The translations under genes were made by a program, and so were the position numbers. Below are positions 5,585-36,742 of a DNA stretch of 43,350 nucleotides, piece by piece (positions within the stretch are counted from its first letter, which is position 1; each line of letters starts with the position of its first letter). The stretch covers positions 1 to 43,350 of the forward strand of contig JBQCJC010000419.1 of NCBI GenBank assembly GCA_051953135.1. The letters run 5' to 3'. This stretch comes from Thermoanaerobaculia bacterium (GTDB lineage Bacteria; Acidobacteriota; Thermoanaerobaculia; Gp7-AA8). The notes beneath the pieces are model-generated. The model searched no databases and was not told the DNA's origin. It saw nothing but the letters and a program-made list of their open reading frames with translations.

Positions 5585-5587
5585 GGA

Positions 5588-6658: not shown

Positions 6659-6668
6659 CACCATTGAT

Positions 6669-6706
6669 AATGACGGCCTGCGCGGCGCAGGCCGTCATTT
6701 CTTTCG
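6669..6706. terminator. Perfect 15+15 nt palindrome followed by a T-rich run; probable (bidirectional) intrinsic terminator between convergent genes
   Basis: AATGACGGCCTGCGC-G-GCGCAGGCCGTCATT (6669..6699) followed by TCTTTC. It starts 11 nt after the stop of 5588..6658. Its right arm overlaps the stop codon (6695..6697) of the minus-strand caspase gene. Confidence 0.7.
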
Positions 6707-8560: not shown

Positions 8561-8644
8561 GACAACTCTCTCCGTTTCTCTCGTGTCATTACCCATGTCG
8601 CTAAAGACACGAAACGCACCCCGGGACATTGAAGAGAGGTCGAG
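8561..8644. promoter_or_regulatory. Divergent intergenic region between the two caspase genes; presumed promoter of the long plus-strand gene run
   Basis: 84-bp spacer with an RBS on both sides (GGAGAGAG on the minus strand; GAAGAGAGG for ATG 8645). It contains the inverted repeat CGTGTC...GACACG. No promoter hexamers are confidently assignable. Confidence 0.3.
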
Positions 8645-14082: not shown

Positions 14083-14653
14083 GAGTAAGCCGCCGGTGCG
14101 TTCGAAATTCGTGGCTGTACCGCTAATCGCAATCGCGCTGTTCTCATGCAATGGTGAAAAGCGCCGACTGACAGCGGAGATCGAGACCATGGAGCATCGT
14201 CGAGCTTCGCTTCAGCGAAGGCTCGATGAGAGGCGTAGCGATCTTCGTGAGTCCGAGGATCAGCTGCACGCACTGCAGCGCGAGCTCACTACACACAATA
14301 CCGAGATTAACGAATTCATCCTCCAGCATCGCATGGCGGCGACCTGCCTTCGTGCCGCGCAAATCACGCTTGGCGATCACAATGAATATTCACAACAGCT
14401 GGCCCGCGCCGCGGGTTGGGGTACTGTACTTTGCACCGTGGCGTTGCTCGATCAGCGATTCGCTCGTGAAGTCACGATAGTCGCCAATCGCGTCAATACA
14501 GCCGATGCCCGTGCGCGCGACCTGAAAGAGCAAATTCAGCGCGCGCAGCAGGCGGTCGATGGTCAGCAAGCACGAGTGCGGGACGACGAAGCCGCACTGG
14601 ATCAGGTTTCGGCCGATATCGGCGATCTCGAATACCGCCTGTTGCAGCAGTGA
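14060..14653 (+). CDS. Coiled-coil protein, probable lipoprotein
   Basis: ORF 14027..14653. ATG 14060 overlaps the CHAT stop by 23 nt; the alternative GTG 14096 lies 13 nt after it. Hydrophobic leader FVAVPLIAIALFSC is lipobox-like. The rest is heptad-rich and Arg/Glu/Gln-rich (RRLDERRSDLRESEDQLHALQRELT...). Confidence 0.55.
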   Translation: MPQATTNKSKPPVRSKFVAVPLIAIALFSCNGEKRRLTAEIETMEHRRASLQRRLDERRSDLRESEDQLHALQRELTTHNTEINEFILQHRMAATCLRAAQITLGDHNEYSQQLARAAGWGTVLCTVALLDQRFAREVTIVANRVNTADARARDLKEQIQRAQQAVDGQQARVRDDEAALDQVSADIGDLEYRLLQQ

Positions 14654-14680: not shown

Positions 14681-16111
14681 TTGTCTGATGTGAAATTCGC
14701 GGCAGCGCTTGCTTTTGTCCTGTTGTTCGCCGGCAGGCTTGCAGCAAAGGAAGGGCTGGACCTCGTCGTACTCCTCGATCGCTCCGCCAGCATGGCCAGC
14801 GATCCGCGCCTTCCCAGCCTGTTTCTGCAAATGACCGTCGATTTGCTGGCACGGAATGCAGCGGCATCTCACGTCGAGCATCGCCTCGCGATCGTCACGT
14901 TCAACCGCTCTGCCACCGTCTCGCTGGAGTTCACAACGGTTGACAGCGACAGTGCGTCGAATCTGCGCAAGCAAATTGCCGCCATGTCATTGCTTCCACG
15001 CGGAGAAACCGATCTGCTGAAGGCATTGACTCGGGCCGACGGTCTATTTCAATCGTTAGACTCGGCCACTGAACGTCGTCGAGCATTACTTCTGGTAACC
15101 GATGGTGTGCCCTATCTCCGCGGCGCGAATCTGCGTGAGTATCACGCGGACTTACGCGCCTACGTCGCTTCACACTTCGTCGGCGTCACGTTGAATGTTC
15201 TGCTCTCGGGTTCCAGCGGACTGTCACTCTTACGATTCTGGCGAACTCTGACGCCACTCGTTCAACATACCCGTCGCACCGTGCCGGACGTCATTGCTGC
15301 GGGCCACCTGGCGTTGAGCCGCCTCGCGGGAACACAGGTGTCGGAAAGCGCATCCACGGTGAAGCAAGGGGAGCCTGACGTTCTAATCGTGCCTCCCTAT
15401 CTCGATGTTGTTGTATTTGACGTGTTTCGCGCATCAAGCGAGATCACGGTGGAAATTTACCAGCCCGGTGCAACAACACCGTTGCGCAATGGAGTCGCGG
15501 GCGTCGAAGCATTCGGAATCGGCGATCTTCTTTCGACCGTGGTCGTGCCTCGCCCTATCGCAGGTGTCTGGAAAATCCGAAAAAGCCACGGTAATGCGCG
15601 CGTGAGAATTCTATCCGAGCAGTTCTTTCCGCGTGGACAACTACTGCACCCGCCGTCCAATACCACCATCGGCGAGGGACGCTTAACGATTATCTACAGC
15701 GTACGCAACGGCGACCACAGCGCACTGCGTGAATTAACGGAATATCCCATCGAGCTCCAGTTGACCCTCGGCTCACCCGATGGTGCACAGAAATCGATCA
15801 TCATGCTGCGCGACAAAGTCTATGGGCCCTCGACCTTTCGCAGCAGCACTCCGGAAGATTGTTCAATCACTGGTCGCTACTGGACAGACGTTCGCATCAC
15901 GACCACGGATCTCCACGGGCTTCGCTTCGAGCTCTTTCGCGATCGATGGTCAGGATTTACCGTTGCGGCTAAGGCACAACCGGCGAGCGCATTGCACCTC
16001 TCGCGACCGGCGATTACACGGGAATCGATTGATCTTCGCTGGATGCTCCTGACCTTGCCGGTCGGCGTGGTCATCGCGATCATCGTGATTACAAGAGCCC
16101 GCAAACCTTAA
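14681..16111 (+). CDS. Secreted von Willebrand factor A (vWA) domain protein with C-terminal TM anchor
   Basis: 476 aa, TTG 14681 or GTG 14690 start. Signal peptide VKFAAALAFVLLFAGRLAA. MIDAS DRSAS (nt 14777..14791) within LVVLLDRSASM, then GETDLLKAL and LLLVTDGVP. C-terminal TM WMLLTLPVGVVIAIIVI followed by TRARKP. Confidence 0.8.
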   Translation: MSDVKFAAALAFVLLFAGRLAAKEGLDLVVLLDRSASMASDPRLPSLFLQMTVDLLARNAAASHVEHRLAIVTFNRSATVSLEFTTVDSDSASNLRKQIAAMSLLPRGETDLLKALTRADGLFQSLDSATERRRALLLVTDGVPYLRGANLREYHADLRAYVASHFVGVTLNVLLSGSSGLSLLRFWRTLTPLVQHTRRTVPDVIAAGHLALSRLAGTQVSESASTVKQGEPDVLIVPPYLDVVVFDVFRASSEITVEIYQPGATTPLRNGVAGVEAFGIGDLLSTVVVPRPIAGVWKIRKSHGNARVRILSEQFFPRGQLLHPPSNTTIGEGRLTIIYSVRNGDHSALRELTEYPIELQLTLGSPDGAQKSIIMLRDKVYGPSTFRSSTPEDCSITGRYWTDVRITTTDLHGLRFELFRDRWSGFTVAAKAQPASALHLSRPAITRESIDLRWMLLTLPVGVVIAIIVITRARKP

Positions 16112-16121
16112 GCCGGCTGCC

Positions 16122-17846
16122 GTGTCTTTTTCATCGTCACGGGAGCAGACGGTGAGAGCGCAAATCGGGCCGTATGAGATCGAGCGGGTTCTCGGCGATG
16201 GTGGCACGGGCGTCGTTTACAAGGGACGCCATAAGTCACTCAATCGCTGGGCGGCCATCAAAACGCTGCTTCCGAAGAACTCCGGCCTAACGACACTGCG
16301 CAAGCGCTTCATCCACGAAGCACGCGCGCAGGCACACCTCAATCATCCGAATCTCGTTGCGGTGTACGACTTCATCGAAGATGCCGATACCGATGAGCTA
16401 TTCATCGCGATGGAGTATGTCGAGGGTGACACACTCGCGGAGGTTCTTGCACGTGCACCGAACAGCCGCCTCTCGATCGCCAGCGCATTGCCACTCTTTC
16501 GGCAAGTCCTCGAAGCGTTGAAGTTCGTTCATGGCAAAGGAATCATTCATCGCGACATCAAGCCATCCAATGTCATGGTCTGTGGATCCGTTGCGAAGCT
16601 TACGGATTTCAGCATCGCATTAATCCCCGACGCGCCCCGCCTGACCGGCCGAATGCAAATTCCGGGAACGCGGCTGTACATGTCGCCCGAACAGTTGGAA
16701 GGCGAGGAGGTCGATGCACGTAGCGACATCTACAGCGCCGCACTCGTTCTCTATCGAATGCTTGCCGGTTGCGACGCGTTCGACGTGAAAGAGTACATGG
16801 CACAGGTGCACGAGCGGCGCGCCCAGCCGCGAGACTTGCGTTTGCTCAACGACGAAATTCCCAAGGGCGTATGTACAGTGCTTTCGACTGCATTGAACCC
16901 GGACCGCCAGAAGAGATTCGCTTCCGCTGCCGCATTTCAGGATGCATTGATCGATGGAGAAGCGGTGTTTCTACAGATCCCAATCGATCGTCAGGAAGCA
17001 ACTCGTACGCACGTCCCGCCGGACGAGACCACAATCGTCAACATCCCAATTCAATCACACACGGAACAATCGTCCACGCCTAGGATGCTCGTATCCGGGG
17101 TGCTGCTTACCGGGACGTTACTCGCTGGAACGTATGCGTTCGTCGCTGTCGATCGACACCCGTCTCCACTGAACCCACCGGCTGTGCGCCAGCCACGGCC
17201 AGTGCAATTACCGGCCATTCCGCCGATCGATTTCACTACGACTACAGTGACACCGATCAAGTCAGTACCCGCTGCAACACCGAAACGTAAATCCATGCAA
17301 GGCATCGCTCCGGCAATGACGATACCCACGTTTAATTCGCGTAATGCCGAACTGGAACGCGAAGAGCGTCAACGCGGGGAGCGCGCGCGGTTACGTGAAG
17401 AAATCGGCGCTGCGCTCGATCGCGCGGAAGCGGCATTAGCCAGCGATCAATTCCTCGCTGCACACGAAGAGCTCGAGAGCGCAACGCAGAAAGCGCAAAC
17501 GCTGCCCGGCGAATTCTGGCAGGAGCGCGAGGAGATCGCACGAATGCGCCAGAGGATCCTGGCCGCGCAGGTGGAGGCGCGCACAAAGCAACAGAAAGAT
17601 GAGCTCTGGCGAAGTCGCATTGCCGAGATCCATCGCCATCTGCAGGCCGGTCGATTTCCTGAAGCGAAAAGCAGTGCCCAACTTCTCGCCGACGATCCCG
17701 CCGCGCCGGAACAGACGCGCGCGCAGGCTCGCGAGCTTTGCGAATCTGCCCGCAACGAACTGATGAACGCGTTCCAACAAACGCAAACGGGAGAAACGAC
17801 GAACAAGGTCCGGAAACCCTCGACACCGCCGAGGAAGAAATACTAG
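16122..17846 (+). CDS. Hanks-type Ser/Thr protein kinase, single TM, coiled-coil extracytoplasmic C-terminal region
   Basis: 574 aa, GTG start 10 nt after the previous stop. G-loop GDGGTGVVYKG, AAIK lysine, HRD (nt 16548..16556) within IIHRDIKPSNV, DFS in place of DFG, SPE in place of APE. TM MLVSGVLLTGTLLAGTYAFVAV, a Pro-rich linker, then a helical Glu/Arg/Ala-rich tail. Confidence 0.9.
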   Translation: MSFSSSREQTVRAQIGPYEIERVLGDGGTGVVYKGRHKSLNRWAAIKTLLPKNSGLTTLRKRFIHEARAQAHLNHPNLVAVYDFIEDADTDELFIAMEYVEGDTLAEVLARAPNSRLSIASALPLFRQVLEALKFVHGKGIIHRDIKPSNVMVCGSVAKLTDFSIALIPDAPRLTGRMQIPGTRLYMSPEQLEGEEVDARSDIYSAALVLYRMLAGCDAFDVKEYMAQVHERRAQPRDLRLLNDEIPKGVCTVLSTALNPDRQKRFASAAAFQDALIDGEAVFLQIPIDRQEATRTHVPPDETTIVNIPIQSHTEQSSTPRMLVSGVLLTGTLLAGTYAFVAVDRHPSPLNPPAVRQPRPVQLPAIPPIDFTTTTVTPIKSVPAATPKRKSMQGIAPAMTIPTFNSRNAELEREERQRGERARLREEIGAALDRAEAALASDQFLAAHEELESATQKAQTLPGEFWQEREEIARMRQRILAAQVEARTKQQKDELWRSRIAEIHRHLQAGRFPEAKSSAQLLADDPAAPEQTRAQARELCESARNELMNAFQQTQTGETTNKVRKPSTPPRKKY

Positions 17847-17856
17847 GAGCGTCTCA

Positions 17857-18579
17857 ATGCGCCGGCAACTCGCATCCTTACTCGTCTGTACGGTCTTGAT
17901 CAGTGGCTGTGCAACAGGAACAACTCCAACAAAATCCGCGGCTAAACCGTCAAACGTAAAAGAATGGGTTGCTTTACAAAGTCGCGCCAGGAAGAAAGCG
18001 ATGGTCGGATTTCTCGTTGGTGCGGCGCTCGGTGCTGTCAGTGCCAGTATCGGCGGCGGAAACAGCGACGATGTGCTGAAGCAAGCGCTTGCCGGCGGAG
18101 TTGCGGGGGCCGTGGTCGGTTTTGCAATCGGCCGCCATCAGGACCGCGTCTTTGCACAACGTGATGACGCGGTGCGGCAGACCGGCTACGAACCTTCACA
18201 AGGGTATATCGCCATTGTCGAAGAAGTAACGTTCAATCCCTCGCAACCAAAACCCGGACAAACGGCGACTCTATACGTTCGATATCACGTCTTAGGACCC
18301 AATCCGAACGAGCCCATCAGAGTCAAGATGTTCCGCGGGCTCAAATATGGCGACGATTATGTCTTCGGCGCGGGTCCGAACGAATTCATCGTTCCGAATG
18401 GCGGTGGAATCGTCGAGTCGACCATGCAGGTCACACTGCCGAAGAAGGCGCCGGAAGGAACGTACAGCGTCGAGGCACTCATTGAAGATCCCGCTGGGCG
18501 CTTCACACAATCGGTCGGTACGGGTGCACTGTACATTGTCGCGCGTGCAGGCGTCCGCGAAGCGGTGCCGGTGGCCTGA
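17857..18579 (+). CDS. Lipoprotein with glycine-zipper segment and C-terminal beta-sandwich-like domain
   Basis: 240 aa, TAGGAG 7 nt upstream. Lipobox LISGC. Glycine zipper GFLVGAALGAVSASIGGG...AGGVAGAVVGFAIG. C-terminal half is beta-rich (TATLYVRYHVLG..., GTYSVEALIEDPAG). Confidence 0.7.
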   Translation: MRRQLASLLVCTVLISGCATGTTPTKSAAKPSNVKEWVALQSRARKKAMVGFLVGAALGAVSASIGGGNSDDVLKQALAGGVAGAVVGFAIGRHQDRVFAQRDDAVRQTGYEPSQGYIAIVEEVTFNPSQPKPGQTATLYVRYHVLGPNPNEPIRVKMFRGLKYGDDYVFGAGPNEFIVPNGGGIVESTMQVTLPKKAPEGTYSVEALIEDPAGRFTQSVGTGALYIVARAGVREAVPVA

Positions 18580-19754
18580 TGAACGTTCCGCACGAAACGG
18601 TGCTCGCGGTGCAGCGCCATTTTCTCGGCACATTGCGCGCGCCGGTGAAAAACTGGCTGGAGGTCGATGGCGCGACGAGACTTGTCCTCATCGGCGAAGG
18701 TCTCCGCGCCGAGTCTGACGAATGCATCCTCGATTTAGGGATCGTCGATGTACAGTCACCGGCACGGCGCACAGTCCGTGTATTGACGGAAGCTGGTGAA
18801 TCCGTCGAAGTTGATGCGGCAACTCTTCCATCCTGGGCGGAATGCGAAACGTCCACGAACGCGATCACGGTCAAAACGCGTTGTAATGACGAAGGCCACC
18901 ACCGCGGGGCAATCCGTCTCGTCATTTCAGGCAGGCATGGCGAGCGCGAAGAAACGCTTCAATTACGGGTCGTCAGTAGAAAACAGCACCCCGTCGCGGC
19001 ATTCGATTTCGACGGATCGCCGGAACCGCACGCATTCGATTTCGGCGATCACGGCCATGCAGTAACGATCGGCGTCCACAATGACTCCGCGGTACCGCTG
19101 ACGGTTAGCTTCTCGGATCTGCCCTATTGGTTGACATTCGAAATTGAAGGCAGCCGCCGCGCCGGGCCGTTGCAAGGACGCTTTTTCGAGCGCAAAGCGC
19201 CGTTTACCGTTGCGATCCGACCGCATTTCCTGGGCCGCCATCGCGGTGTGATGCGCTTACAGACGAATGACCCGCGGCCGGAACTGCAGGACATCGAGCT
19301 CAATTTCAGCGGCTCAATGGCCGATCCACAACCGCACCTGCGCGCCATCACGCCCAAACCGGTGTCCGCGCGTACCGACCAGCCGCTCATGACCATGGTG
19401 CAGCTCGAGAACTGGGGACGGCTTCCCGCCCGCGTGCTCTGTAGCGCGGCGCCGCCTGCAATTGCAGTCGCGAAAATCCCACCGGTACCTGCCGCGGACG
19501 ACGGCGTCCCCGGCAGCGCGATTCTTCCGATCGGAATTTCTCCGGACCTGCTTACTCCCGGTACGCATCACCTCGTGCTGTCCTTACAAATCGATGGAGG
19601 TGAGCCGCCGAAAATCGCGGTTCCGATCCGCATCGATGTGACGGCAGCACCAGCGCGTCCCAAAAGCGTGATGCGGCCCGAAGTCATCATCGCAGTTGTA
19701 TTACTGCTCCTGCTGACTGTCCTGTTCGTCTTTGCAAGCCGAGGCTGGTCATGA
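18579..19754 (+). CDS. Tail-anchored protein with about three Ig-like (PapD/ASH-like) beta-sandwich repeats
   Basis: 391 aa, TGATG overlap with the upstream gene. No signal peptide. Repeats recur roughly every 100 aa with patterns such as AVTIGVHNDSAVPLTVSF and TMVQLENWGRLPARV. C-terminal TM VIIAVVLLLLLTVLFVFA. Confidence 0.62.
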   Translation: MNVPHETVLAVQRHFLGTLRAPVKNWLEVDGATRLVLIGEGLRAESDECILDLGIVDVQSPARRTVRVLTEAGESVEVDAATLPSWAECETSTNAITVKTRCNDEGHHRGAIRLVISGRHGEREETLQLRVVSRKQHPVAAFDFDGSPEPHAFDFGDHGHAVTIGVHNDSAVPLTVSFSDLPYWLTFEIEGSRRAGPLQGRFFERKAPFTVAIRPHFLGRHRGVMRLQTNDPRPELQDIELNFSGSMADPQPHLRAITPKPVSARTDQPLMTMVQLENWGRLPARVLCSAAPPAIAVAKIPPVPAADDGVPGSAILPIGISPDLLTPGTHHLVLSLQIDGGEPPKIAVPIRIDVTAAPARPKSVMRPEVIIAVVLLLLLTVLFVFASRGWS

Positions 19755-22600
19755 GCACCAATCGAGTTGCAGAGTGCCGGTATTGTCATCAATGGCAGAT
19801 CTCAGTTGACGACACCTATTGTGGGTTTTGCGGACGACTGCAACTACTGCTCGAACTCGACAAAGAGTCGATCGTTCTGATCTCGACGCTCGCGCCGGAA
19901 AAAGTACTGAAGCTTCGGAACGATTCGACTCACCACATGACGGTCGAGATTCGTCCGCGCGAAGGGGCGCCAATTCCGGGGATTGCGTTCGAGCCCGGCC
20001 CGCGACTCGAAATTGGCCCTAAAAGTGAGGTCGCCGTTCGGGTCGGTGTTGATGCCAATCAATTACCGGCCGGATTTCAGCGTGTTACGGATTATGCGTG
20101 CATCGTCGACGGTGATACTCGCAAACAACGTGCGGTGCGATTTGACGTTCGTTCCGGGCCACGGCCCAAACTCTTCACTCCTACGCTCGATTTTCAAGAC
20201 ATTGAGGAAGGTAAAGGTGTCGAACGATCCATTCATCTCGCGAACACCGGCAGCGTAACGCTATCCATTCGCGCAGTCCGGGTAAACGGAAATCCCCACC
20301 TCACGATCCGTGGAGATTACGCAAAGCATCGAATCGCGGCTGGCGAGCGCTTGTCGATTTCGGTGTTATGGGAAACGAAAAGCGGAGCGACGTTCGATCC
20401 TAAGGCATCGGGCGTTCAAATCGAATTTGATAATTATCCTGAGCCGCTCCTCATCCCGGCGAATGCCCGAATTTACCGATATCGCATCGACGCTCAGCCA
20501 GCGACTGTGCGGTTCTCGCAAGCATTGGCGAAACGCGACCACGCAATGACTGTTCGGCTGGAAAATCAGGGAACCACCGATGTCGAAGTGCTCGCCATCG
20601 AGAGCAATCAACCGTGGATTCACATACTCTCGCGAGCCGCACAATTCACACTGCTCTGCGACGATCCGGCAAAAACGAATCCGCTTTCACCCACCACGTT
20701 TCTGCGAACGTTCGAATTTCGCGTGCTGTGCCGTCCAACTGAGCTCGCCAAAGGGAAACACGACGGCACAGTGACGATCCGTCCGCGGGGACAAGCATCC
20801 ATTTCGATCCCTGTCGAAATCACAGTCGTCGAACCACGTGAGTATCACGACTATGTCGGCATCGACTTCGGGACCACAAACTCTGTCGTTGCCGTGCTCA
20901 GTAGCGATCATGATAGTGGCGTAGATCTCGTCAAGGACGACCTGTCCGGCCGTGAGCTGATTCCAAGCGTTCTCGTTTTCGACGACCCGGAGACGTACAA
21001 GATCGGGCAGGCAGCGCGGAACGAAGCCGATACCGCGCCGGACCGCACGGTGCGTTCAATTAAGCGCGTCATGGGTTACGAACGTGAGCGCGACTTCTTT
21101 GACCGGTCCTATACAGCGGCCGAACTGGCATCTCTGATCATCAGGCGCCTGGTCCAACTGGCCGAACAAAAAATCCACACCGATTCGACAAACGGCCACC
21201 ATTACACGATCCGCCGCGCGATCATCACGGTTCCCGCGAATTTTCACGACCTCCAGATTCGCGACGTTCTCGCTGCCTGTGAGGCCGCAGGGCTCGATAC
21301 CGAGGAAGAACGCGCGAGGAAAGTTGCCGCGCATACGAGCAGCGTCATTGGGGCGATGGTCAATGCCGGCGTAATTCTGGATGAGCCTTCGGCGGCGGTG
21401 CTGTACTACCTCGATTTTCTACGCCGCCGGCGAAAGGCATCCGACATCATGCAGGCCATTGCGCGCGAGCAAGGCCTGAAACTGCTCGTATTCGATTATG
21501 GCGGAGGCACACTCGACGTCGCGATCGCCACGGCAACGCAGTTACCAGGCGGCGGCACCGGCCTGCGCATCATTACGAGCCTCGGCAATAACGAAATCGG
21601 TGGCGATTACATCGACGTGTTGTTCATGCAGGAGTTGCTGCGTCGATGTCAGGACCTGTCATTGCCGCATTTCGAGTTCGAGACTTCGCTCGTCTCCTGC
21701 ACGTTCCGCGAATTGCAGCGACGTTGCGACGCGGAAGGATGGAGCCGCGAAACGTGGCGAGAGCTCCTCCGGATCCGCGCGCAATGGAAAGATCTGGCGG
21801 AACAGACCAAGATCCGGATCGCCGAAGACAAACAAACGCCCATCGACATTCCGCCGGATCTCATTGTGCGGCTCACCAGCAGCGGGCTCGATAAATCGAC
21901 TCGCGCGGTAAAAATCGCACCGCTGCCGAACGACACGATCCACAACATCCTCCAGCCCGTGCTCGCACGATGCCGGTCACTCATTGAAAGACTTCTCTCG
22001 CTGGCCGGAGTCAATGCCAGCGAGATCGATTACATCCTGCATACAGGCCGTCAAAGCCTGCTCCCGCAAATCCGCGGCTGCGTCCGAGACCTCTTCCCGG
22101 AACTGGCGGACGATCGCGATCTCCTTGAACAAGAACACCTGAAGATCTGTGTCGCGAAAGGCGCGGCGCTCTATGGCTCGATGCGTAATCGTCTCGTCAC
22201 GCCGGACGCAAAGATCGTTTTATTGAGCGACGGGCGCCGGCTGCCCCACAGTTACGGCGTCGAGACGTTCACGAATCCAGTCGAGCCCGAGCTCGACGAA
22301 ATCATCGAACGCGGCGAGCAATATCCAGTCGAGCGAACGAAAACCTATCCCGCCGCAATGATTCCGCCGAGCGGCACGCTCAATTTGAAGTTCTATCAAA
22401 ACAACGGCACCGACATTCGCATCATTGGGAATCGCGACGTCACTCTGATTGGCCAGATTTCGATCGAGACGAGTAGCACCGATGGATGTGACGTGACCTT
22501 CAGTGTCAGCGCGAACCGCACGCTCAATGTCGAAGCCAACGGCCGGCCGGTCACGATCGAGCCGGCTCGACTGCATGAAGAAGAAAGCTGGATGGGATGA
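19751..22600 (+). CDS. Non-canonical Hsp70 (DnaK-family) ATPase: N-terminal Zn ribbon + about three Ig-like repeats + NBD + SBD-beta, no helical lid
   Basis: 949 aa, ATGA overlap. Zn ribbon CRYCHQ...CGFCG (nt 19775..19831). Ig-like repeats: LKLRNDSTHHMTVEI, IHLANTGSVTLSI, VRLENQGTTDVEV. Hsp70 NBD motifs: VGIDFGTTNSVVAV (nt 20855..20884), AIITVPANFHDLQIRD, ILDEPSAAVLYY, LLVFDYGGGTLDVAI, GNNEIGGDYID, ILHTGRQSLLPQI. SBD-beta-like LPHSYGVETF...CDVTFSVSANRTLNVEANG. The protein ends about 15 aa later. Confidence 0.88.
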   Translation: MSTNRVAECRYCHQWQISVDDTYCGFCGRLQLLLELDKESIVLISTLAPEKVLKLRNDSTHHMTVEIRPREGAPIPGIAFEPGPRLEIGPKSEVAVRVGVDANQLPAGFQRVTDYACIVDGDTRKQRAVRFDVRSGPRPKLFTPTLDFQDIEEGKGVERSIHLANTGSVTLSIRAVRVNGNPHLTIRGDYAKHRIAAGERLSISVLWETKSGATFDPKASGVQIEFDNYPEPLLIPANARIYRYRIDAQPATVRFSQALAKRDHAMTVRLENQGTTDVEVLAIESNQPWIHILSRAAQFTLLCDDPAKTNPLSPTTFLRTFEFRVLCRPTELAKGKHDGTVTIRPRGQASISIPVEITVVEPREYHDYVGIDFGTTNSVVAVLSSDHDSGVDLVKDDLSGRELIPSVLVFDDPETYKIGQAARNEADTAPDRTVRSIKRVMGYERERDFFDRSYTAAELASLIIRRLVQLAEQKIHTDSTNGHHYTIRRAIITVPANFHDLQIRDVLAACEAAGLDTEEERARKVAAHTSSVIGAMVNAGVILDEPSAAVLYYLDFLRRRRKASDIMQAIAREQGLKLLVFDYGGGTLDVAIATATQLPGGGTGLRIITSLGNNEIGGDYIDVLFMQELLRRCQDLSLPHFEFETSLVSCTFRELQRRCDAEGWSRETWRELLRIRAQWKDLAEQTKIRIAEDKQTPIDIPPDLIVRLTSSGLDKSTRAVKIAPLPNDTIHNILQPVLARCRSLIERLLSLAGVNASEIDYILHTGRQSLLPQIRGCVRDLFPELADDRDLLEQEHLKICVAKGAALYGSMRNRLVTPDAKIVLLSDGRRLPHSYGVETFTNPVEPELDEIIERGEQYPVERTKTYPAAMIPPSGTLNLKFYQNNGTDIRIIGNRDVTLIGQISIETSSTDGCDVTFSVSANRTLNVEANGRPVTIEPARLHEEESWMG

Positions 22601-24021
22601 CACGGCTGATGATCGACATCGGTGGGCGAGTTCTATCGGCCGCCCTGGCATTCGACGATGGCCAGATCATTCCGATCAGCCAGGAAATCCGGAACACCGC
22701 GACGCGGTATGTCGCCACCGAGATTCTGTTCGAGCCTCGCGTTCCGGAGCATCGTGATTTCACGTGGGACGATTCGCTCGAGTCCCTCGGCAAAGCGAGC
22801 GCTCGCGATTTCTTTCAACGTGCAAGGCGCATTGGATTGCGCCGGCCGTGGGATCCGCAACTTTCCACCGACGTCGTGTCAATCACACCTCCCCTGTCGG
22901 TTTTGTCGTCGCCTGCCGCCATCGCGGACACACATGCACAGCACTGGCTACCGCGTTTCGCAATCGCGATGATCGATGCTCTTCTGGAGCCGATATTCGG
23001 TTTTGTTGCAGAGCGACGGATCGCGTCAGAAAGCGTCGATGTCGTTGTGATCATTCCGTCGTATGCGAGCCGAATCGCTCGTCGAGGAATTACGCGACTG
23101 GTCCGGCACCGCGGGTTTCGGAGCGTATTACTCCTTCGCCGCGAAATTGCCGCCGCAATGACATTTCTCGAGAACAGTGGCGTGTGTGACGTCGCCGACT
23201 CTACACACGATGATCTCCAACTTCACAGAGTCGCTCTGTACCGCGATGACGAGCGAATGACGTTCAAGACAGTCCACTCGTCCCTGCATAAAGACCTCGG
23301 CTGGCATCACTGGGCGTCGCGTATCGCATCTGCGATCGGAACAACCCCGGCACCGGCATTCGATCGTGCACTGCTGTCGGCATTGAGCGGCTCGCCATCA
23401 TCATCGACGCCATTGCCTCACTCGACCATTGAGCGCGCATTGGCACAGATCCAACTCGATGACGATCTCCGTAATGCGCTCCGTGGCGACGCGTCGAGCG
23501 TCTACATCGGCGAGCTGGCCTCGGTTGACGCCATACGCGAGCGAATTCGCGGAATCGCGGTAACGCGCACCTCGGAAGAAATTCTTAGAGCCGTAGCCGC
23601 AACGATGCAATGGCGCGATCACCGCGACACGCGACGCATTTGTGTCGCGCCGCGGGGAACGCTTCGCCTCGATACATTGCATGGCACCACGATCGAGCTA
23701 CTACGACCAGGGCAACTTCCCGCGCCCGGAGAATCGTGTGTCATCCAGCAGGAACTGCGCATTACAGGAGAGCAGGCGCCGCTGAATTCCGTCCTGGTGC
23801 ATCTACTGTGGGGTGGCAACAGCACAATCGAGGGCAACGCCACCATTTCCGCGATGCGAGTGCCATTGCATGGCGCGTCCGGTGAGAGATTGCGCCTCGC
23901 AATTCGACTGCATCGCAGCCGTGGCGGTGCCTTACTGCACGGATTCATCGAGGCGCACAGTTCACGCGGCGGCATTCCCGTGCGTGCCCGCTTCACCGAG
24001 GATTTGGAGGTGACGAGATGA
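22597..24021 (+). CDS. Degenerate Hsp70/actin-fold paralog (probably ATPase-impaired partner)
   Basis: 474 aa, ATGA overlap. MIDIGGRVLSAAL sits where IGIDLGTTNS would be but lacks the TT. VVVIIPSYASRIARRGITRLVRHRGFRSVLLLRREIAAAMTF parallels the Hsp70 ITVPAYF...AG...EP(T/S)AAA block. The C-terminus (RLRLAIRLHRSRGGALLHGFIEA) resembles the end of SBD-beta. Confidence 0.55.
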   Translation: MTRLMIDIGGRVLSAALAFDDGQIIPISQEIRNTATRYVATEILFEPRVPEHRDFTWDDSLESLGKASARDFFQRARRIGLRRPWDPQLSTDVVSITPPLSVLSSPAAIADTHAQHWLPRFAIAMIDALLEPIFGFVAERRIASESVDVVVIIPSYASRIARRGITRLVRHRGFRSVLLLRREIAAAMTFLENSGVCDVADSTHDDLQLHRVALYRDDERMTFKTVHSSLHKDLGWHHWASRIASAIGTTPAPAFDRALLSALSGSPSSSTPLPHSTIERALAQIQLDDDLRNALRGDASSVYIGELASVDAIRERIRGIAVTRTSEEILRAVAATMQWRDHRDTRRICVAPRGTLRLDTLHGTTIELLRPGQLPAPGESCVIQQELRITGEQAPLNSVLVHLLWGGNSTIEGNATISAMRVPLHGASGERLRLAIRLHRSRGGALLHGFIEAHSSRGGIPVRARFTEDLEVTR

Positions 24022-25274
24022 GGAAGTGCTTTGCGATCCTTTTCCTGGCATGGGTGGCGGCGCCCTTACGCGCGGCGACGCCTCTTGTGATTGCATCGAA
24101 AAGCGAGCCTGCGAAAGCCGTTAAGACCGTGGCCGACGAAAGAGTGACTGAGCTCGAGCAGATCGTACGCGCACAACAGGCGCTTCTCGTCGCCCAGGCA
24201 CGACTCACTGCACAACATGCGGCCATTGCACGAGAACGCGCCACGCCATCGGTGCCACCACCGAATCATCTGCTACCCGTCGTCGCCGCATCGGCAGGAA
24301 CGGTTGCCGTATTCCTACTGCTGTTTCTCATCGTCTTTCGCAAGCCGGTACCGTTTCCCAAATGGGATGACCTCCCCGTCGTCAGAGAATTGAACAACAC
24401 ACTCGCGAATCTGCAATCAGCCGCGCGTACAGTGGAAGATCGTCTACAGAAATTGCTGAACGAGTTTCATCCCGAAACGATCCTCACAGTCGATCACCTC
24501 AATGCGCTTGCGACCGAGGCACGCAGCCTCCGCGCGGATCTCGCCGAAATTCAACTGGCCTTATCCAAAGATCATTCGTCCGTAACGGACAGCCCCGTCA
24601 CTTACGATCAGGTTCGCGTCGAGCACGAAATCCTCGCAGAGCATTGGAAAGAATTTCAGAAAAAAGAGCTCATCGTTCCGGACACAGAGCAGGAACCCTG
24701 GGAGCCATTGGTTAAGGATCTCGGCACCTGTATCCCTGACGATCTCAAACCATCGTTCGACAGTGTCACCGCTCCATGGCGCGAGCACCGCCACCTCCTG
24801 AATCGAATCGGACTCATTCCCCGCATCGCCGCCGGAACGTTTCAATCGCTGTCCTCACCGGCTGCAGAGGTCAAACGCACGCGTGAGCTTGCGTCCCTCC
24901 TGGTCTCTGTACAAACACCGGAAGGATCGGGGCGCCTCCAGTTCCGATTCAAGAACTGGATCACCGACACGTTCCTGCAGTTCGCGGATGTTTATCTGCA
25001 ACGCCATCAACAAACGTTGCTCGAGCACCCGGGTGACTCCTTGCAGAAAGGCGCAGTTCTCGTTCGCCAGATTCTTCGCATGGCAGCGGTCGAGGCGATC
25101 GAGGTCGTGCCCGGAGTGACGTCCTTCGACAGCACACGCCACATCGGTCGCTCCACCTCCAGCGACCCGCGCTTTGGCGACGGTGTCATTACAGGCGTAG
25201 TCCGAAATGGATTCATCGAAGGCGGGCGGCAGATCATCCGGCAGCCGGAAGTAATCGTGAATCGCCCGCGATGA
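24018..25274 (+). CDS. Membrane-spanning GrpE-like nucleotide-exchange-factor candidate
   Basis: 418 aa, ATGA overlap. N-terminal signal-like MRKCFAILFLAWVAAPLRA, about 60 aa of coiled coil, TM LLPVVAASAGTVAVFLLLFLIVF then RK. C-terminus VEAIEVVPGVTSFDSTRHIGRSTSSDPRFGDGVITGVVRNGFIEGGRQIIRQPEVIVNR matches the GrpE beta-domain pattern (V..I...G..FD...H.......G.I..V...G....G...R...V.V). Confidence 0.55.
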   Translation: MRKCFAILFLAWVAAPLRAATPLVIASKSEPAKAVKTVADERVTELEQIVRAQQALLVAQARLTAQHAAIARERATPSVPPPNHLLPVVAASAGTVAVFLLLFLIVFRKPVPFPKWDDLPVVRELNNTLANLQSAARTVEDRLQKLLNEFHPETILTVDHLNALATEARSLRADLAEIQLALSKDHSSVTDSPVTYDQVRVEHEILAEHWKEFQKKELIVPDTEQEPWEPLVKDLGTCIPDDLKPSFDSVTAPWREHRHLLNRIGLIPRIAAGTFQSLSSPAAEVKRTRELASLLVSVQTPEGSGRLQFRFKNWITDTFLQFADVYLQRHQQTLLEHPGDSLQKGAVLVRQILRMAAVEAIEVVPGVTSFDSTRHIGRSTSSDPRFGDGVITGVVRNGFIEGGRQIIRQPEVIVNRPR

Positions 25275-25286: not shown

Positions 25287-26552
25287 GTGACTTGTCCCTA
25301 CGCTGTGGCCAATTGCCGGCCGCCGGCCTCGCGCAACGCGCGAACATGCAAATGCGGCGGAATGCTCAAGCCGTGTTCGGCTTGTGAGACGCCGAATCGT
25401 GCGTTCGCAAACTTCTGCCGTTCCTGCGGTGAATCGCTGCCGTCAACGAACACAAACTGGACTGCCCATCGGGGCAATGGCCGCCGTCTCGGATTGAACC
25501 CCGTCACAGTCGGGTCGCCTTACCTCATAGACCGCGTACAAATGACGCTAAGGCTTGGCGATTCGTGCAGCAGCCTGCTCGGGTATGACGGACACCTCGT
25601 CGCCGTTTCAATCAAAGGACTCGTCGAAATTGTGGAACCGGCTCGTAATCAAAGCGTCTGCCGGTTTCAGGTCGCGGGCGCAGTCACGTCCGATCCCTGC
25701 ATTCACAACGGCGTCCTGTACGTCACCGCGGGGCGTCAGCTCGTGGCTTACGCATTATCGTCGTTAACGCTCAATCCTCCGCGCGTGCGTCCATTGTGGA
25801 GCATTTCGCTCGACGCAACCCCGGTGCATCCGCTTACGGTTGCCGGCGGGCGACTGTACGTGACTCTCGCAAATCGCGACGGGCGTGAAGTGCATGTTCT
25901 CGACGACCTGCTTCATCCAGCGAACACCCGCCTGCTGTACGGTGCGCGGCAAGTGAGCTGGGTCGCCGCCGATCCCCAAAGCACACGGGCCTTGTTCTTT
26001 AGCGATGACGGCGATGGCAACGTCCAATTGCATACTGTCGATCGCGACCTAATCACGAAACCTGTACTGGTCGACCGGCTTGGGCAATCGGCGATCGCGG
26101 TCATCGGCGATTCTGTCTTCGGCAGTTTCGGCGAAACGAATCGTCTGTACAGAATCGATTCGACATCGGGATCGATCGAAGAGCCGCTCGAAGACGACAC
26201 GCAGCTCTTTGCGCTTTCGGCGGATGGCGACGATGAATGGGATCGCGATGCGGTCTACGTCGACACCAGCGGCGTCTCATTTGTCCGGCCGGGCGTACGC
26301 GATACGTTCGAACCGCACGATCGCGCGACAAAGGGATCGCCACTGATGATTCGCGACAGCGCCGTCTTGATCGGGATGCAGGATGGACGCGTACGCATCT
26401 ATGACGTCGCGCATTTACCAAGTTACGAAACGTGGCTCGTCGCAGGCGGTTCTGCAATCACCGCGCTTGCGTCTTTCGAGTCGTATGTCGCGGCTGGCAA
26501 TACCAACGGATTCGTCGAAGTGCGACAAATTCGCGCGAGAGGGCGCTCGTAA
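25287..26552 (+). CDS. Zn-ribbon protein fused to a PQQ/WD40-like beta-propeller
   Basis: 421 aa, GTG 25287 (alternative ATG 25362). Cys clusters CKCGG..CSAC...FCRSCG. Repeated blade-like segments: GVLYVTAGRQLVAYAL, GGRLYVTLANRDGREVHVLD, AVLIGMQDGRVRIYDV, YVAAGNTNGFVEVRQI. Confidence 0.68.
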   Translation: MTCPYAVANCRPPASRNARTCKCGGMLKPCSACETPNRAFANFCRSCGESLPSTNTNWTAHRGNGRRLGLNPVTVGSPYLIDRVQMTLRLGDSCSSLLGYDGHLVAVSIKGLVEIVEPARNQSVCRFQVAGAVTSDPCIHNGVLYVTAGRQLVAYALSSLTLNPPRVRPLWSISLDATPVHPLTVAGGRLYVTLANRDGREVHVLDDLLHPANTRLLYGARQVSWVAADPQSTRALFFSDDGDGNVQLHTVDRDLITKPVLVDRLGQSAIAVIGDSVFGSFGETNRLYRIDSTSGSIEEPLEDDTQLFALSADGDDEWDRDAVYVDTSGVSFVRPGVRDTFEPHDRATKGSPLMIRDSAVLIGMQDGRVRIYDVAHLPSYETWLVAGGSAITALASFESYVAAGNTNGFVEVRQIRARGRS

Positions 26553-28327
26553 TGAGACCGCGCGCACTAGCGTTCGTCGTCCTCGGCTTTTTCGCTGCGA
26601 CCGCATCCGCGCAGCAGCTCACGCCGGGCATACCACTCGCCGTACGTATCCTGTACGACAACTCCGGAAGCATGTACCCGGGGTATCGGCCTCCAGGCAC
26701 GCCTGATCGCATGAGTCGACAGGAACTGGGTGCACGCTATTTTCATCAAACGCCACAATTCGCCGAATGGCTCAATGACTTTGTTCAACGCCAGACAATC
26801 GTCGATGGCGGAACGGTCGGTATGTGGACCTTCACGTCCTACGGATCCTTTTCTCCGTCCGACATTCAGGAAGTTCATCCGCCACGACCGATTGCAGAGT
26901 TCAATGTTCAGCGCGCGATTGCAGCATTTCCTCCTGAAACGGGTGATCGCACGTACCTGCGCGAAACGATCGGGGAGTTCACACGCGATTTCACGGGTCT
27001 GGTCTGGCTAATCACAGACAACATTGTCGAGAGCAATGCCGGTGAACCTGATGCCGGCGTACAGAACTTCTTTGAGTCACTCGCAAGCGGTCGGAATCTC
27101 CGCTCCGTTCATCTTTTCAAATACACATTCAATGATGGCGGGCTCTCCGCGGCAATCGCCGTATACGGGATTCTCGTCTCGAACAAGGACGTTCCGTCTA
27201 ACACGCTCGGCTTTTACGACGGCAAGTTCCGCCGGCTTGCGGATGCGAAACGAGTCCGTGGAACAGGCGATTTGTTTCCGGGTCACGAGTATCTCAAGCT
27301 GAAGGACCTGCATGTCGATCCGCTTCGTCCCGAGCTCCGCCTCGTGCTCGCCGAGGGCGACAATGGATCATTTCGGGAAGGACAAAGTGTAAAGCTCGAC
27401 GTTCAGGGCGCCATTCGCAGCTACCTGACACAGCACACAGTCACGGGCGGGCGATACGAGCTCGCGATTGCTTCGCCGTTTCAACCAGAAGACTGGGCGG
27501 CCAGGAACCTGGGCGCACAATCGCTGCAAGCCGGCCAATTTGATCCCGCGTCGGCCGACCTCGAGGACGAAATTCCTCCCAACGGCTCACGCTCCATCAA
27601 CGCGACGTTGCAATCACGCCAGCCGGTCTCGTTCTCGGTAAGTGGTCTTACACAATGGTTGCGACTCGCCTGGAATGGCGCGACGGTTCGATACAACGGC
27701 ACAGTGCGAATGTCGTTTACCGGAGTCACTGTGCGGCTCGAACAACGCCGCATGGCCGGCATCTTCGGAATCGACCACGCGACCTCGGCCTTCGAATTTC
27801 AGAACGTCAGCACTCTTCCGACGGTCACGCCGAGCGTGGTCCCAGTGAGCTTCGTATTGCGCACGGGACCGTCCAGGACCGCGATTCTCGTTTTGGTCCT
27901 CGCGATTCTCTGCGCACTCCTTACGTCGCTTGCGTTCGTCTTGTCCCGCAAGCGCATCTTTCGGATCGCTCTGTCCCGAGAACCGGAACGAGTGGTCGCG
28001 CTCGGCCCACTTCGCACTCATGACATCTTGCTCGATGGGCAGTGTATTGGCCGTCTATCGCGAGGAGTTTTCCGTGCCTACACGTTCAATCCGTCATCGG
28101 CTAACGATTGCACAATCAGTGCGACGCCGGAGCTCGACGTATGGGACGTAAAACTCGGCGATGGCACATTGCGCCGATTGTCGATCAAGGCAGAAGGCGG
28201 AGGACGCTCCAGCACTGTCAATCCGGGAGCGGCCAATCCTCGGGCCGCACCCGCGCCTCCTCCCCCATCGCCTAGAAACATCCCGCCTCCACTACCCGGC
28301 CGCTCGCCGCGGATCGGCAAACCCTGA
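26552..28327 (+). CDS. Secreted vWA-domain protein with TM anchor and cytoplasmic tail ending in a polyproline segment
   Basis: ORF 26432..28327, trimmed to ATG 26552 (TAATG overlap). Signal peptide MRPRALAFVVLGFFAATASA. MIDAS DNSGS (nt 26657..26671) within RILYDNSGSM, then VWLITDN. TM TAILVLVLAILCALLTSLAFVL followed by SRKR. Tail ends AAPAPPPPSPRNIPPPLPGRSPRIGKP. Confidence 0.75.
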   Translation: MRPRALAFVVLGFFAATASAQQLTPGIPLAVRILYDNSGSMYPGYRPPGTPDRMSRQELGARYFHQTPQFAEWLNDFVQRQTIVDGGTVGMWTFTSYGSFSPSDIQEVHPPRPIAEFNVQRAIAAFPPETGDRTYLRETIGEFTRDFTGLVWLITDNIVESNAGEPDAGVQNFFESLASGRNLRSVHLFKYTFNDGGLSAAIAVYGILVSNKDVPSNTLGFYDGKFRRLADAKRVRGTGDLFPGHEYLKLKDLHVDPLRPELRLVLAEGDNGSFREGQSVKLDVQGAIRSYLTQHTVTGGRYELAIASPFQPEDWAARNLGAQSLQAGQFDPASADLEDEIPPNGSRSINATLQSRQPVSFSVSGLTQWLRLAWNGATVRYNGTVRMSFTGVTVRLEQRRMAGIFGIDHATSAFEFQNVSTLPTVTPSVVPVSFVLRTGPSRTAILVLVLAILCALLTSLAFVLSRKRIFRIALSREPERVVALGPLRTHDILLDGQCIGRLSRGVFRAYTFNPSSANDCTISATPELDVWDVKLGDGTLRRLSIKAEGGGRSSTVNPGAANPRAAPAPPPPSPRNIPPPLPGRSPRIGKP

Positions 28328-28349: not shown

Positions 28350-28730
28350 ATGAACGGTCGTATCGCGGTCGGATTGTCTTCGCTCATATCGGCACTGCCC
28401 GCCATCGCTGCAGATCCGGCACCCGCACTCGAACAATCGGACAACATCGTGCTGCGCGGCGCCGGGATTTTTCTGGTGCTCGTAATGATCTGGTTCGTTC
28501 TCTACAAAGTCCTGTATCCCTTTCTGCTGCGGTATTACCGCGATGGGTTTTGTAAAACTGTCTTCTGGAATCTCTTTTCGCTTTATGCCCTCACCTGGAT
28601 TTTCGTGTCGTTGTACGTGGTGCTGGATTTCGGCTTCTACTGGGGATGGCTGCCATGGCTGGCCGCATTCCTCGGCGCATGGTGGTTGATTTCCGGCGTC
28701 GTGCTGTTGCTGCGGCGCGTGCCCGCCTAA
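28350..28730 (+). CDS. Small aromatic-rich integral membrane protein
   Basis: ORF 28161..28730, trimmed to ATG 28350 (GGAAAGGAG upstream). 126 aa. Signal-like MNGRIAVGLSSLISALPAIAA plus three hydrophobic segments (IFLVLVMIWFVLY, LFSLYALTWIFVSLYVVL, LPWLAAFLGAWWLISGVVLLL). Confidence 0.65.
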   Translation: MNGRIAVGLSSLISALPAIAADPAPALEQSDNIVLRGAGIFLVLVMIWFVLYKVLYPFLLRYYRDGFCKTVFWNLFSLYALTWIFVSLYVVLDFGFYWGWLPWLAAFLGAWWLISGVVLLLRRVPA

Positions 28731-36704: not shown

Positions 36705-36742
36705 GTCAAGGAGTGGCGGGAGGGAGGGAAATCCCTACCTCC

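Follow-up and report, generated by a model that had tools for sequence, protein, structure and literature searches.

A lidless Hsp70, a pseudo-ATPase Hsp70 paralog and a GrpE-like protein encoded in an FtsZl1/Tubulin_2 operon of Thermoanaerobaculia

The locus and its genes

We examined a 43,350-nucleotide stretch of DNA from a Thermoanaerobaculia bacterium (contig JBQCJC010000419.1 of assembly GCA_051953135.1), which we refer to as the window. Three adjacent genes in the window encode a lidless Hsp70 (P1), a pseudo-ATPase paralog of Hsp70 (P2), and a membrane-anchored GrpE-like protein (P3). An earlier reading of this DNA, which we refer to as the original prediction, had described these three genes as a self-contained triad. 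We found instead that the triad is embedded in a conserved operon with the tubulin homolog FtsZl1 (Pfam family Tubulin_2) in every locus that encodes P2. Judging from the sequences and the gene order, the triad appears to be the conserved chaperone core of a membrane-spanning operon around this tubulin-like protein.

In the window, the operon is an array of 14 genes, all on the + strand (14027-34513), with intergenic gaps of -4 to +27 nucleotides. (The bigger overlaps in the list of open reading frames are artefacts of over-long calls.) At all three junctions of the triad (19751, 22597, and 24018), the sequence reads ATGA, which bears out the overlaps that had been described. Sigma-70-like promoters and intrinsic-terminator-like sites are rarer within 14027-34513 than in shuffled sequence. 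The genes of the array are listed below. "Synteny" indicates that the gene is supported by its conserved position in related loci.

14027-14653, + strand: coiled-coil lipoprotein (synteny)
14681..16111, + strand: vWA protein 1 (Pfam VWA_2, E = 1e-9; signal peptide; DxSxS metal ion-dependent adhesion site (MIDAS), read from the sequence as DRSAS; predicted C-terminal transmembrane segment; synteny)
16122..17846, + strand: Ser/Thr protein kinase (Pfam Pkinase, E = 2e-46; transmembrane segment; C-terminal coiled-coil region; synteny)
17857..18579, + strand: glycine-zipper lipoprotein (Pfam Gly-zipper_YMGG and NCBIfam YiaD-like, both under the cut-off; synteny)
18579..19754, + strand: 391-amino-acid β-rich, immunoglobulin-like (Ig-like) protein with a C-terminal transmembrane anchor (immediately 5' of P1, the two genes overlapping at ATGA; position conserved in every close locus)
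19751..22600, + strand: P1, lidless Hsp70 of 949 amino acids (Pfam HSP70, E = 4e-33; alignment with DnaK)
22597..24021, + strand: P2, pseudo-ATPase Hsp70 paralog of 474 amino acids (AlphaFold2 (AF2) model, Foldseek, and hhalign residue map)
24018..25274, + strand: P3, membrane-anchored GrpE-like protein of 418 amino acids (Pfam GrpE matches of orthologs; transmembrane prediction)
25287..26552, + strand: double zinc ribbon and β-propeller (PQQ_2-like) protein (Pfam DZR and PQQ_2, sub-threshold; orthologs match PQQ_2 or Beta-prop; synteny)
26552..28327, + strand: second vWA-like protein (signal peptide, DNSGS MIDAS, transmembrane segment, and proline-rich cytoplasmic tail, read from the sequence; 54-60% identity in syntenic loci)
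28350..28730, + strand: small protein with three transmembrane segments (transmembrane prediction; 69-80% identity in syntenic loci)
28756..32676, + strand: FtsZl1/Tubulin_2 protein of 1306 amino acids with C-terminal double zinc ribbons (Pfam Tubulin_2, E = 4e-63; DZR, E = 3.5e-6; 59-72% identity in syntenic loci)
32673-33455, + strand: trypsin-like protease (Pfam Trypsin_2, E = 1e-17; synteny)
33452-34513, + strand: 353-amino-acid transmembrane/β-sandwich protein, the last gene of the array (synteny)

Neither the β-rich protein at 18579..19754 nor the second vWA-like protein at 26552..28327 has a match in Pfam, and the former is weakly similar to the N-terminus of P1. The region encodes 18 proteins, none of which contains a Walker A motif or matches a GTPase family in Pfam or NCBIfam.

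Zinc ribbons are found on three cytoplasmic proteins of the operon: P1 (19751-19840), the β-propeller protein (25287-26552), and FtsZl1 (28756-32676). These ribbons may be a common device for assembly or recruitment.

The Hsp70-like and GrpE-like proteins

P1 matches the HSP70 family of Pfam (PF00012) with 114.8 bits (E = 4e-33), which is far above the gathering threshold of 20.6. In contrast, it scores just 124.6 bits against the DnaK equivalog NF001413 (cut-off 648 bits), 123.2 bits against TIGR02350 (also DnaK; cut-off 822.55 bits), and 102 bits against the HscA model TIGR01991 (cut-off 708.55 bits). Because P1 passes the Pfam threshold but misses the equivalog cut-offs of NCBIfam, it is an Hsp70 but neither DnaK nor HscA. 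The distance from these cut-offs supports the idea that P1 is a specialized, non-housekeeping Hsp70. The earlier description of a specialized Hsp70 with a pseudo-ATPase paralog and a GrpE-like partner is supported.

P1 begins with a zinc ribbon (residues 8-28) and three Ig-like repeats (~35-362), which are followed by the nucleotide-binding domain (NBD; ~366-810), a VLLSD linker with the β subdomain of the substrate-binding domain (SBDβ; ~822-940), and the tail EESWMG. We aligned P1 with DnaK from E. coli and with nine orthologs from related loci, and we use the residue numbers of DnaK. D8, T11, T12, K70, R71, P143, E171, D194, G196-198, T199, D201, E267, and K270 are identical throughout this alignment. 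The match to DnaK extends across the complete SBDβ, and the protein ends about 10 residues past strand β8, at the point where helix A of the lid would start in DnaK. So, the claim that the first gene has the full set of NBD motifs and an SBDβ but no lid is upheld by the alignment with DnaK, by the lengths of the family members, and by their shared tail.

The family is uniform in length: the ~95 best-matching members that were listed have 941-985 amino acids (46-73% identity and 99-100% coverage). The tail EESW(M/T)G is common to ten aligned orthologs. A frameshift at 22600 that would conceal a canonical lid, which the original prediction had raised as a concern, was checked and is excluded: the position of the stop codon and the tail are conserved, and the conserved N-terminus of P2 starts within the overlap. 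Given also the lengths of the family members, there is no hidden lid. The tail, which recalls the EEVD tail of eukaryotic Hsp70, may serve in docking or bind to P1 itself.

The tail region of P1 (22571-22597, residues 941-949) takes other forms in more distant proteins. It reads DDERWLG in a divergent homolog (34% identity) and EDAW.. in a TIR-fused paralog.

The N-terminal extension of P1 is 365 residues long. The four-cysteine zinc ribbon (CxxC...CxxC) that opens it is invariant among the aligned orthologs. Only the second Ig-like repeat (residues 143-215) is matched directly in the protein from the window, with sub-threshold hits to DUF1573 (E = 1e-4) and choice-of-anchor D (E = 6e-5), and also to HYDIN-Ig and ASH. 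Repeats 2 and 3 can be aligned weakly with each other (hhalign E = 0.005), and the orthologs have ASH, HYDIN, or BACON matches at all three repeat positions. The earlier description of this front end as a zinc ribbon plus Ig-like repeats thus stands, with the ribbon identified by its invariant cysteines and the repeats mostly via the orthologs. Clients might be chosen by these Ig-like and zinc-ribbon modules.

Six residues of DnaK touch the J-domain: R167, Q378, D211, D477, P419, and L391 (Mayer 2021, PMC8215388). Four of the six (R167, Q378, D211, and D477) are replaced in P1, while P419 and L391 are kept. Also, the acidic residues within positions 206-217 of DnaK are all non-acidic in P1; the allosteric residues R151 and D481, which are changed in all orthologs, are isoleucine and asparagine in P1; and P1 has a 22-residue insertion immediately before the position of R167. 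By these residues, P1 looks like a J-insensitive Hsp70 that is lidless yet competent at its active site.

We searched all six reading frames of the window, and of 22 related loci (~5-23 kb each, most of them at least 12 kb), with a hidden Markov model for the J-domain; no match was found, and the positive control, DnaJ from E. coli, gave E = 2e-36. In the real open reading frames of the window, there is no HPD motif in a J-like setting. The original prediction had noticed the lack of a J-domain in this locus, and the same is true of the related loci.

P2 has no significant match by sequence to Pfam or to PDB, either as a single sequence or as a profile of 41 sequences; there are weak matches to MreB (E = 0.011 in Pfam and 0.002 in NCBIfam). 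Its Hsp70 fold is revealed only by the predicted structure. The AF2 model is confident (pLDDT 87, pTM 0.89), and Foldseek matches it only to two-domain Hsp70s in PDB, with E values of 3e-18 to 1e-13 for DnaK, Hsc70, and BiP over ~520-590 alignment columns. Further matches are to Ssb, to Ssz1, and to Hsc70 as it occurs in the Hsp110:Hsc70 complex. Because the matches are to whole two-domain Hsp70s, P2 comprises an NBD and an SBDβ without a lid, and is more than an NBD alone.

To map the residues of P2 onto DnaK, we used a colinear profile alignment from hhalign, whose statistics are weak and which serves for mapping only. The correspondences are:

DnaK D8: D7 in P2 (kept)
DnaK T11/T12: G/R in P2 (lost)
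DnaK K70: L61 in P2 (lost)
DnaK E171: E183 in P2 (kept)
DnaK D194: D201 in P2 (kept)
DnaK G196-G198 and T199: T/H/D/D in P2 (the GGGT loop is lost)
DnaK G229-G230: G-W in P2

The original prediction was therefore right that the second protein keeps the Hsp70 fold and has lost the phosphate-1 TT and other ATPase motifs. The most conserved element of P2 is an arginine-rich motif, FFQRARRIGLRRPWDP (residues 72-87; 22810-22857 of the window), which lies in subdomain IB and has no counterpart in DnaK. The family is small, with 52 clusters in an indexed search and 59 representatives when every one of 1.84 billion proteins was scored. It has 34 invariant columns and a mean column identity of 62%, which is a clear sign of purifying selection in the aligned sequences. 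P2 is conserved even though it is a pseudo-ATPase, so binding is its most likely mode of action.

P3 has an N-terminal signal or transmembrane segment and a strong transmembrane segment at residues 88-106 (24279-24335), as judged by hydropathy, and many of its orthologs start at the segment that corresponds to residues 88-106. The cytoplasmic part has long helices or a coiled coil, a family-specific helical domain (residues ~198-300) in which many positions are invariant, and a C-terminus that hardly varies. The GrpE-like region is at residues ~308-416 (24939-25265).

Among 45 orthologs of P3, 38 match the Pfam GrpE family with E ≤ 0.01, and the best match is 3e-7. Four of ten tested orthologs score above the gathering threshold (30.7, 28.1, 28.0, and 27.4 bits), with positions 41-164 of the 165 in the profile covered. 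Several orthologs carry the name GrpE at JGI. Residues ~308-413 of P3 are colinear with residues 85-190 of GrpE from E. coli (E = 0.01 and 1e-5 by hhalign and HMM, with a small test set), and this pairs F309 with F86, FDSTRH with LDPNVH, NGF with KGY, and IRQPEV with IRAAMV. The alignments of the P2 and P3 families with single or few references are colinear with weak E values (0.18, 0.01, and 0.007), and were used for residue mapping only. When the profile of the P3 family was compared to PDB, coiled-coil matches swamped the result and GrpE was not reached. The C-terminus of P3 is GrpE-like and would be a homolog of GrpE.

Conservation of the operon and its neighbors

A pattern-based scan of 185,579 species genomes found the P2 profile in just 8, all of which are metagenome-assembled genomes of Acidobacteriota or Thermoanaerobaculia. 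The gene order of the window is conserved in nine distinct related loci (L001, L002, and L004 are one place and were counted once). The order is fixed: caspase and/or TPR-CHAT, coiled-coil lipoprotein, vWA, kinase, glycine-zipper lipoprotein, Ig-like transmembrane protein, P1, P2, P3, zinc-ribbon β-propeller, second vWA, the protein with three transmembrane segments, FtsZl1/Tubulin_2, the trypsin-like protease (in some loci), and the transmembrane β-sandwich protein. In all loci with P2, it lies within the same operon as FtsZl1/Tubulin_2, two vWA proteins, the kinase, the propeller, and several transmembrane proteins. At the level of gene sequence and order, P1, P2, and P3 are predicted to be translationally coupled and are co-inherited with FtsZl1.

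The identities to the proteins of the window in the close genome loci (L004-L011) are:

FtsZl1: 65-72%
P1: 61-66%
P2, P3, the first vWA protein, the kinase, and the Ig-like transmembrane protein: 38-49%

The small protein with three transmembrane segments (69-80%) and the trypsin-like protease (67-73%) are conserved as strongly as the two NTPases, P1 and FtsZl1. In a divergent metagenome locus (L003), the identities are 54% for P1, 59.5% for FtsZl1, and 32-43% for P2, P3, the first vWA protein, the kinase, and the Ig-like transmembrane protein.

More distant versions of the operon keep part of this order. In loci whose P1 is 32-39% identical, we found Hsp70, a P2-like protein, a GrpE-like protein, and then, after other genes, the propeller, the second vWA protein, a transmembrane protein, and Tubulin_2. 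Where P1 is 25-26% identical, Hsp70, the GrpE-like protein, the propeller, and Tubulin_2 are kept. Tubulin_2 is present in every tubulin-linked variant that we examined. In one locus of the most distant class (L021), the gene immediately 5' of the Hsp70 gene encodes a zinc ribbon by itself; given the fused ribbon of P1, this would be consistent with a gene fission or fusion.

The genes upstream of the operon in the window (892-14082) are:

892-2171, - strand: extracytoplasmic function (ECF) sigma factor and an adjacent putative anti-sigma gene
2237-5584: CHAT protein of 1115 amino acids
5588-6658: protein of 356 amino acids without an assignment
6695-8629, - strand: FG-GAP-repeat protein
8645-10888, + strand: caspase-like protein (Pfam Peptidase_C14, E = 6e-24)
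10882-14082, + strand: TPR-CHAT protein (Pfam CHAT, E = 1e-69; TPR_12)

The last three + strand genes of this upstream block run directly into the operon. At least one of the caspase-like, TPR-CHAT, and coiled-coil lipoprotein genes precedes the vWA gene in 6 of the 7 distinct related loci that reach upstream.

Downstream of the operon, the window contains:

34539-40853: block that begins with a DUF6930/DUF7309 protein
35466-36704, - strand: protein with a Tle1-like phospholipase domain (Pfam, E = 4e-65)
36743-40853, - strand: tripartite pump (HlyD, major facilitator superfamily, and outer-membrane efflux proteins)

This downstream part (34539-40853) shows no synteny with the operon loci.

TPR-CHAT, CHAT-TIR, caspase, or FGE-sulfatase genes adjoin independent versions of the operon. 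For instance, FGE-sulfatase-domain genes adjoin two divergent versions (L014:2230-3900 and L023:3757-4893). The FGE-sulfatase domain is among those that Kaur et al. (PMC7159879) list as hypervariable effectors or sensors of conflict systems. Beside a version with 39% identity is a group of four CHAT genes with divergent transcription, of which two are TIR-fused (L022:1-9599); the Hsp70 of this contig is annotated as Ca. Aminicenantes.

Two paralogs of P1, P0297 and P0294, are 51-60% identical to it from the last Ig-like repeat through the NBD, the SBDβ, and the acidic-tryptophan tail. Instead of the zinc ribbon and the first Ig-like repeats, they have TIR_2 and HATPase_c_4 domains. A stand-alone TIR_2 gene precedes the gene for P0297 (L018:1674-5225, L019:3409-6960, and L020:1965-5516), and PIN/PhdYeFM toxin-antitoxin pairs surround it; we found no P2, P3, or tubulin in these neighborhoods (L018-L020). 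A search of the literature found no Hsp70-TIR defense systems.

Related systems and possible functions

Divergent Hsp70s whose own ATPase activity is reduced or dispensable are known to partner active Hsp70s: Hsp110/Sse1 is a nucleotide exchange factor for Hsp70, and Ssz1 is part of the ribosome-associated complex. Like these, P2 is a divergent protein with the Hsp70 fold, and structures of both kinds are among its Foldseek matches (3c7n and 6sr6). In contrast to them, P2 is related to Hsp70 by fold only and its nucleotide site is more degraded; its pairing with P1 is predicted. P1 itself resembles DnaK in its catalytic residues, its interdomain linker, and the topology of its SBDβ. It differs from DnaK in having a 365-residue N-terminal extension, no α-helical lid, and no J-protein nearby, and in having lost J-contact residues. 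P3 resembles GrpE in its C-terminal motifs (FDxxxH, G-aromatic, and IRxPxV), which follow long helices, but it is membrane-anchored and twice the usual size. In common with P1, the narrow-client Hsp70s HscA and HscC show NBD deletions and insertions as well as changes in the J-binding loops (Mayer 2021, PMC8215388). HscA and HscC have a lid and a dedicated J-protein but no GrpE, and P1 is the reverse: it has a dedicated GrpE-like gene but no lid and no J-protein nearby.

Among the closest known counterparts of this combination of genes are the DO-GTPase/GAP1-N2 conflict systems, in which three non-overlapping themes were recognized: tubulin with two vWA proteins; HSP70 with GrpE, with or without an NBD-only HSP70, plus FNIII-DnaJ or TPR; and a kinase with a zinc ribbon, a β-rich domain, and vWA (Kaur, Burroughs, Iyer, and Aravind 2020, PMC7159879). 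As in those systems, Hsp70, GrpE, and a second protein with the Hsp70 fold are encoded together in the window; β-sandwich repeats, vWA, a kinase, zinc ribbons, and tubulin homologs are linked in both; and a membrane site is predicted there. The differences are that the operon in the window has no GTPase (as there is no Walker A motif) and that it merges the tubulin, HSP70, and kinase themes. Also, the Ig-like repeats are fused to Hsp70 and there is no J-domain, whereas in the DO-GTPase systems FNIII is fused to DnaJ or TPR. The second HSP70 of those systems lacks the peptide-binding domain, whereas P2 retains an SBDβ. Finally, those systems are from actinobacteria and firmicutes, while this operon is from Acidobacteriota. 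Membership in the DO-GTPase systems was rejected as the region has no P-loop protein. The operon is a variant of the same kind of system, outside that family.

FtsZl1 was originally defined from operons with vWA, kinase, GTPase, and OmpA genes, and a role in membrane remodeling was proposed (Makarova and Koonin 2010, PMC2875224). The operon in the window is similar in that FtsZl1/Tubulin_2 is encoded beside a vWA protein with an intact MIDAS, a Ser/Thr kinase, and many transmembrane or periplasmic proteins, contiguously and on the same strand. It differs in that the GTPase, which was frequent in the operons of 2010, is absent. The only candidate for an OmpA-like partner is the glycine-zipper lipoprotein, with its sub-threshold N-terminal similarity to YiaD/OmpA-like proteins. 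The supplementary table of PMC2875224 includes, without comment, a GrpE-COG (Cagg_1315) and a DnaK-COG (amb2961) among the neighbors of FtsZl1 in two genomes. The text of that paper does not discuss Hsp70 or GrpE, and neither a pseudo-Hsp70 nor a lidless Hsp70 with fused Ig-like repeats and zinc ribbon is described in it.

We propose that P1, P2, and P3 are the cytoplasmic, ATP-driven chaperone or switch module of a membrane-spanning FtsZl1/vWA/kinase system. We give this proposal, which we draw from sequences and structure models, a probability of roughly 55%. The FtsZl1/vWA/kinase system is that of Thermoanaerobaculia and related Acidobacteriota. The combinations of HSP70, GrpE, and a second HSP70, and of tubulin and vWA, in conflict systems (PMC7159879) would be precedents for such a module, by analogy.

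In this module, P3, which probably forms a coiled-coil dimer as GrpE does, would hold P1 at the inner membrane and speed the release of its ADP. Through its lidless SBDβ and its own zinc-ribbon and Ig-like modules, P1 would bind and release a small and fixed set of partners; likely candidates are the FtsZl1 polymer or the zinc-ribbon and Ig-like proteins of the same operon. The trigger for ATP hydrolysis would not be a J-protein but perhaps P2, which might pair with P1 in a heterodimer in the way that Hsp110 and Ssz1 partner Hsp70. A contact between the NBDs of P1 and P2 might then involve the RARRIGLRRPWD loop. The output of the system would be a conflict or cell-death response via the CHAT, caspase, or TIR proteins.

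A fuller version of this idea is that the three proteins form a J-independent machine, with P2 as the partner of P1 and P3 resetting it, which nucleates, remodels, or dismantles the FtsZl1 polymer within a trans-envelope sensor with CHAT/caspase or TIR outputs. This would be a chaperone-gated cytoskeletal switch for immunity or cell death. We offer it tentatively, and as a whole we think it unlikely to be right in every part.

Several observations weigh against the module as we propose it. First, the GrpE-like C-terminus of P3 is less certain than the rest. The protein from the window scores 14.2 bits against Pfam GrpE (PF01025; E = 0.035, profile positions 103-164 of 165), which is under the gathering score of 25.8. 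The AF2 monomer has long helices and a β-domain of low confidence (pLDDT 46-65), and Foldseek found no match of this monomer to GrpE. Because neither AF2 nor Foldseek gave a GrpE β-domain, the homology of P3 to GrpE rests on sequence profiles; of the claim in the original prediction, the sequence similarity stood, and the GrpE fold is putative. Second, P2 is absent from the most distant versions of the operon (P1 identity of 25-26%), so it appears not to be essential to the ancestral system. Because it is missing there, the ancient unit was probably Hsp70, the GrpE-like protein, and FtsZl1, with P2 added later. Third, a J-protein may be encoded elsewhere in the genome. Fourth, PADLOC-DB 2.0 has no match for P1, P2, P3, FtsZl1, or the vWA proteins, and no relative was found among the viral contigs of IMG/VR. 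Finally, stable synteny on the chromosome could fit a housekeeping function in the envelope equally well.

In PADLOC-DB 2.0, only the kinase is matched, by generic PD-T4-6 kinase models. Membership in a catalogued defense system was rejected, as PADLOC is negative for the core proteins. An origin from phage or mobile elements was also rejected: IMG/VR contains no relative that we could find, and the window contains no tRNA, no integrase, and no marks of mobile elements.

The alternative that survives best keeps the same module but places it in a housekeeping system for membrane remodeling, the envelope, or the cytoskeleton, in which the Hsp70 set assembles or recycles the FtsZl1 polymer. FtsZl1, the vWA proteins with their intact MIDAS, the kinase, and the transmembrane and periplasmic parts do fit the description from 2010 (PMC2875224), and the stable chromosomal synteny (with 60-72% identity for P1 and FtsZl1), the lack of tRNA or mobile-element marks, and the lack of a PADLOC match are what would be expected of it. 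On the other hand, CHAT/caspase, TIR, and FGE-sulfatase genes recur beside independent versions of the operon; paralogs of P1 are fused to TIR, one of them within toxin-antitoxin clusters; and the spread of the system is narrow and patchy (8 of 185,579 species genomes, and 59 representatives of P2 among 1.84 billion proteins). We consider this a possible but minority explanation. Given the recurrent CHAT/caspase, TIR, and FGE-sulfatase neighbors and the TIR-fused paralogs, we favor a function in conflict or cell death over housekeeping.

P1 could instead be a conventional, client-folding Hsp70 assisted in trans by an orphan J-protein or by the cell's general DnaJ, in which case P2 would be a functionless, decaying duplicate. 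In favor of this, P1 retains P419 and L391 along with an intact catalytic site and linker. But it seems improbable: all orthologs have other residues at R167, Q378, D211, D477, R151, and D481 and in the acidic patch, the lid is missing from every aligned ortholog, and P2 is under purifying selection (34 invariant columns and 62% mean column identity) with a confidently predicted fold.

We are slightly more doubtful still that the triad acts independently of its neighbors, as a stand-alone chaperone for signaling or assembly like SglK/GrpS or StkA of Myxococcus. The genes with their ATGA coupling do make a plausible set of Hsp70 and nucleotide exchange factor, and the TIR-fused paralog P0297, which occurs without P2, P3, or tubulin, shows that P1-like Hsp70s can be used in other contexts. 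But all of the loci with P2 or P3 carry Tubulin_2, the second vWA protein, the propeller, and the small transmembrane protein in the same order; the triad is not set apart by a gap or by a promoter or terminator signal; and there are no genes for motility or matrix nearby.

Actin-like filaments of the ParM or MreB type, formed by P1 and/or P2, are very improbable: the weak matches of P2 to MreB (E = 0.011 and 0.002), a sub-threshold Alp7A_C match in one relative of P1, and the tubulin homolog in the operon hint at them, but the structures that Foldseek ranks highest for P2 are all two-domain Hsp70s with an SBDβ, P1 has the Hsp70 linker and SBDβ, and a GrpE-like partner makes sense only for the nucleotide cycle of an Hsp70.

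In the usual view, an Hsp70 cannot start hydrolyzing ATP without a J-protein or hold on to its clients without a lid. The P1 family keeps the catalytic site but has no lid and no J-protein nearby; what it has in their place is a dedicated GrpE-like factor and a pseudo-Hsp70, so it lends itself to testing how far rewiring of the Hsp70 cycle can go. We know of no function that has been established for FtsZl1 since 2010, and the operon gives this tubulin family a concrete set of candidate partners. Finally, the operon links effectors of the CHAT, caspase, and TIR kinds with ATPases of the Hsp70 type, and would extend the proposal of chaperone-gated conflict systems to a form from Acidobacteriota that has no GTPase.

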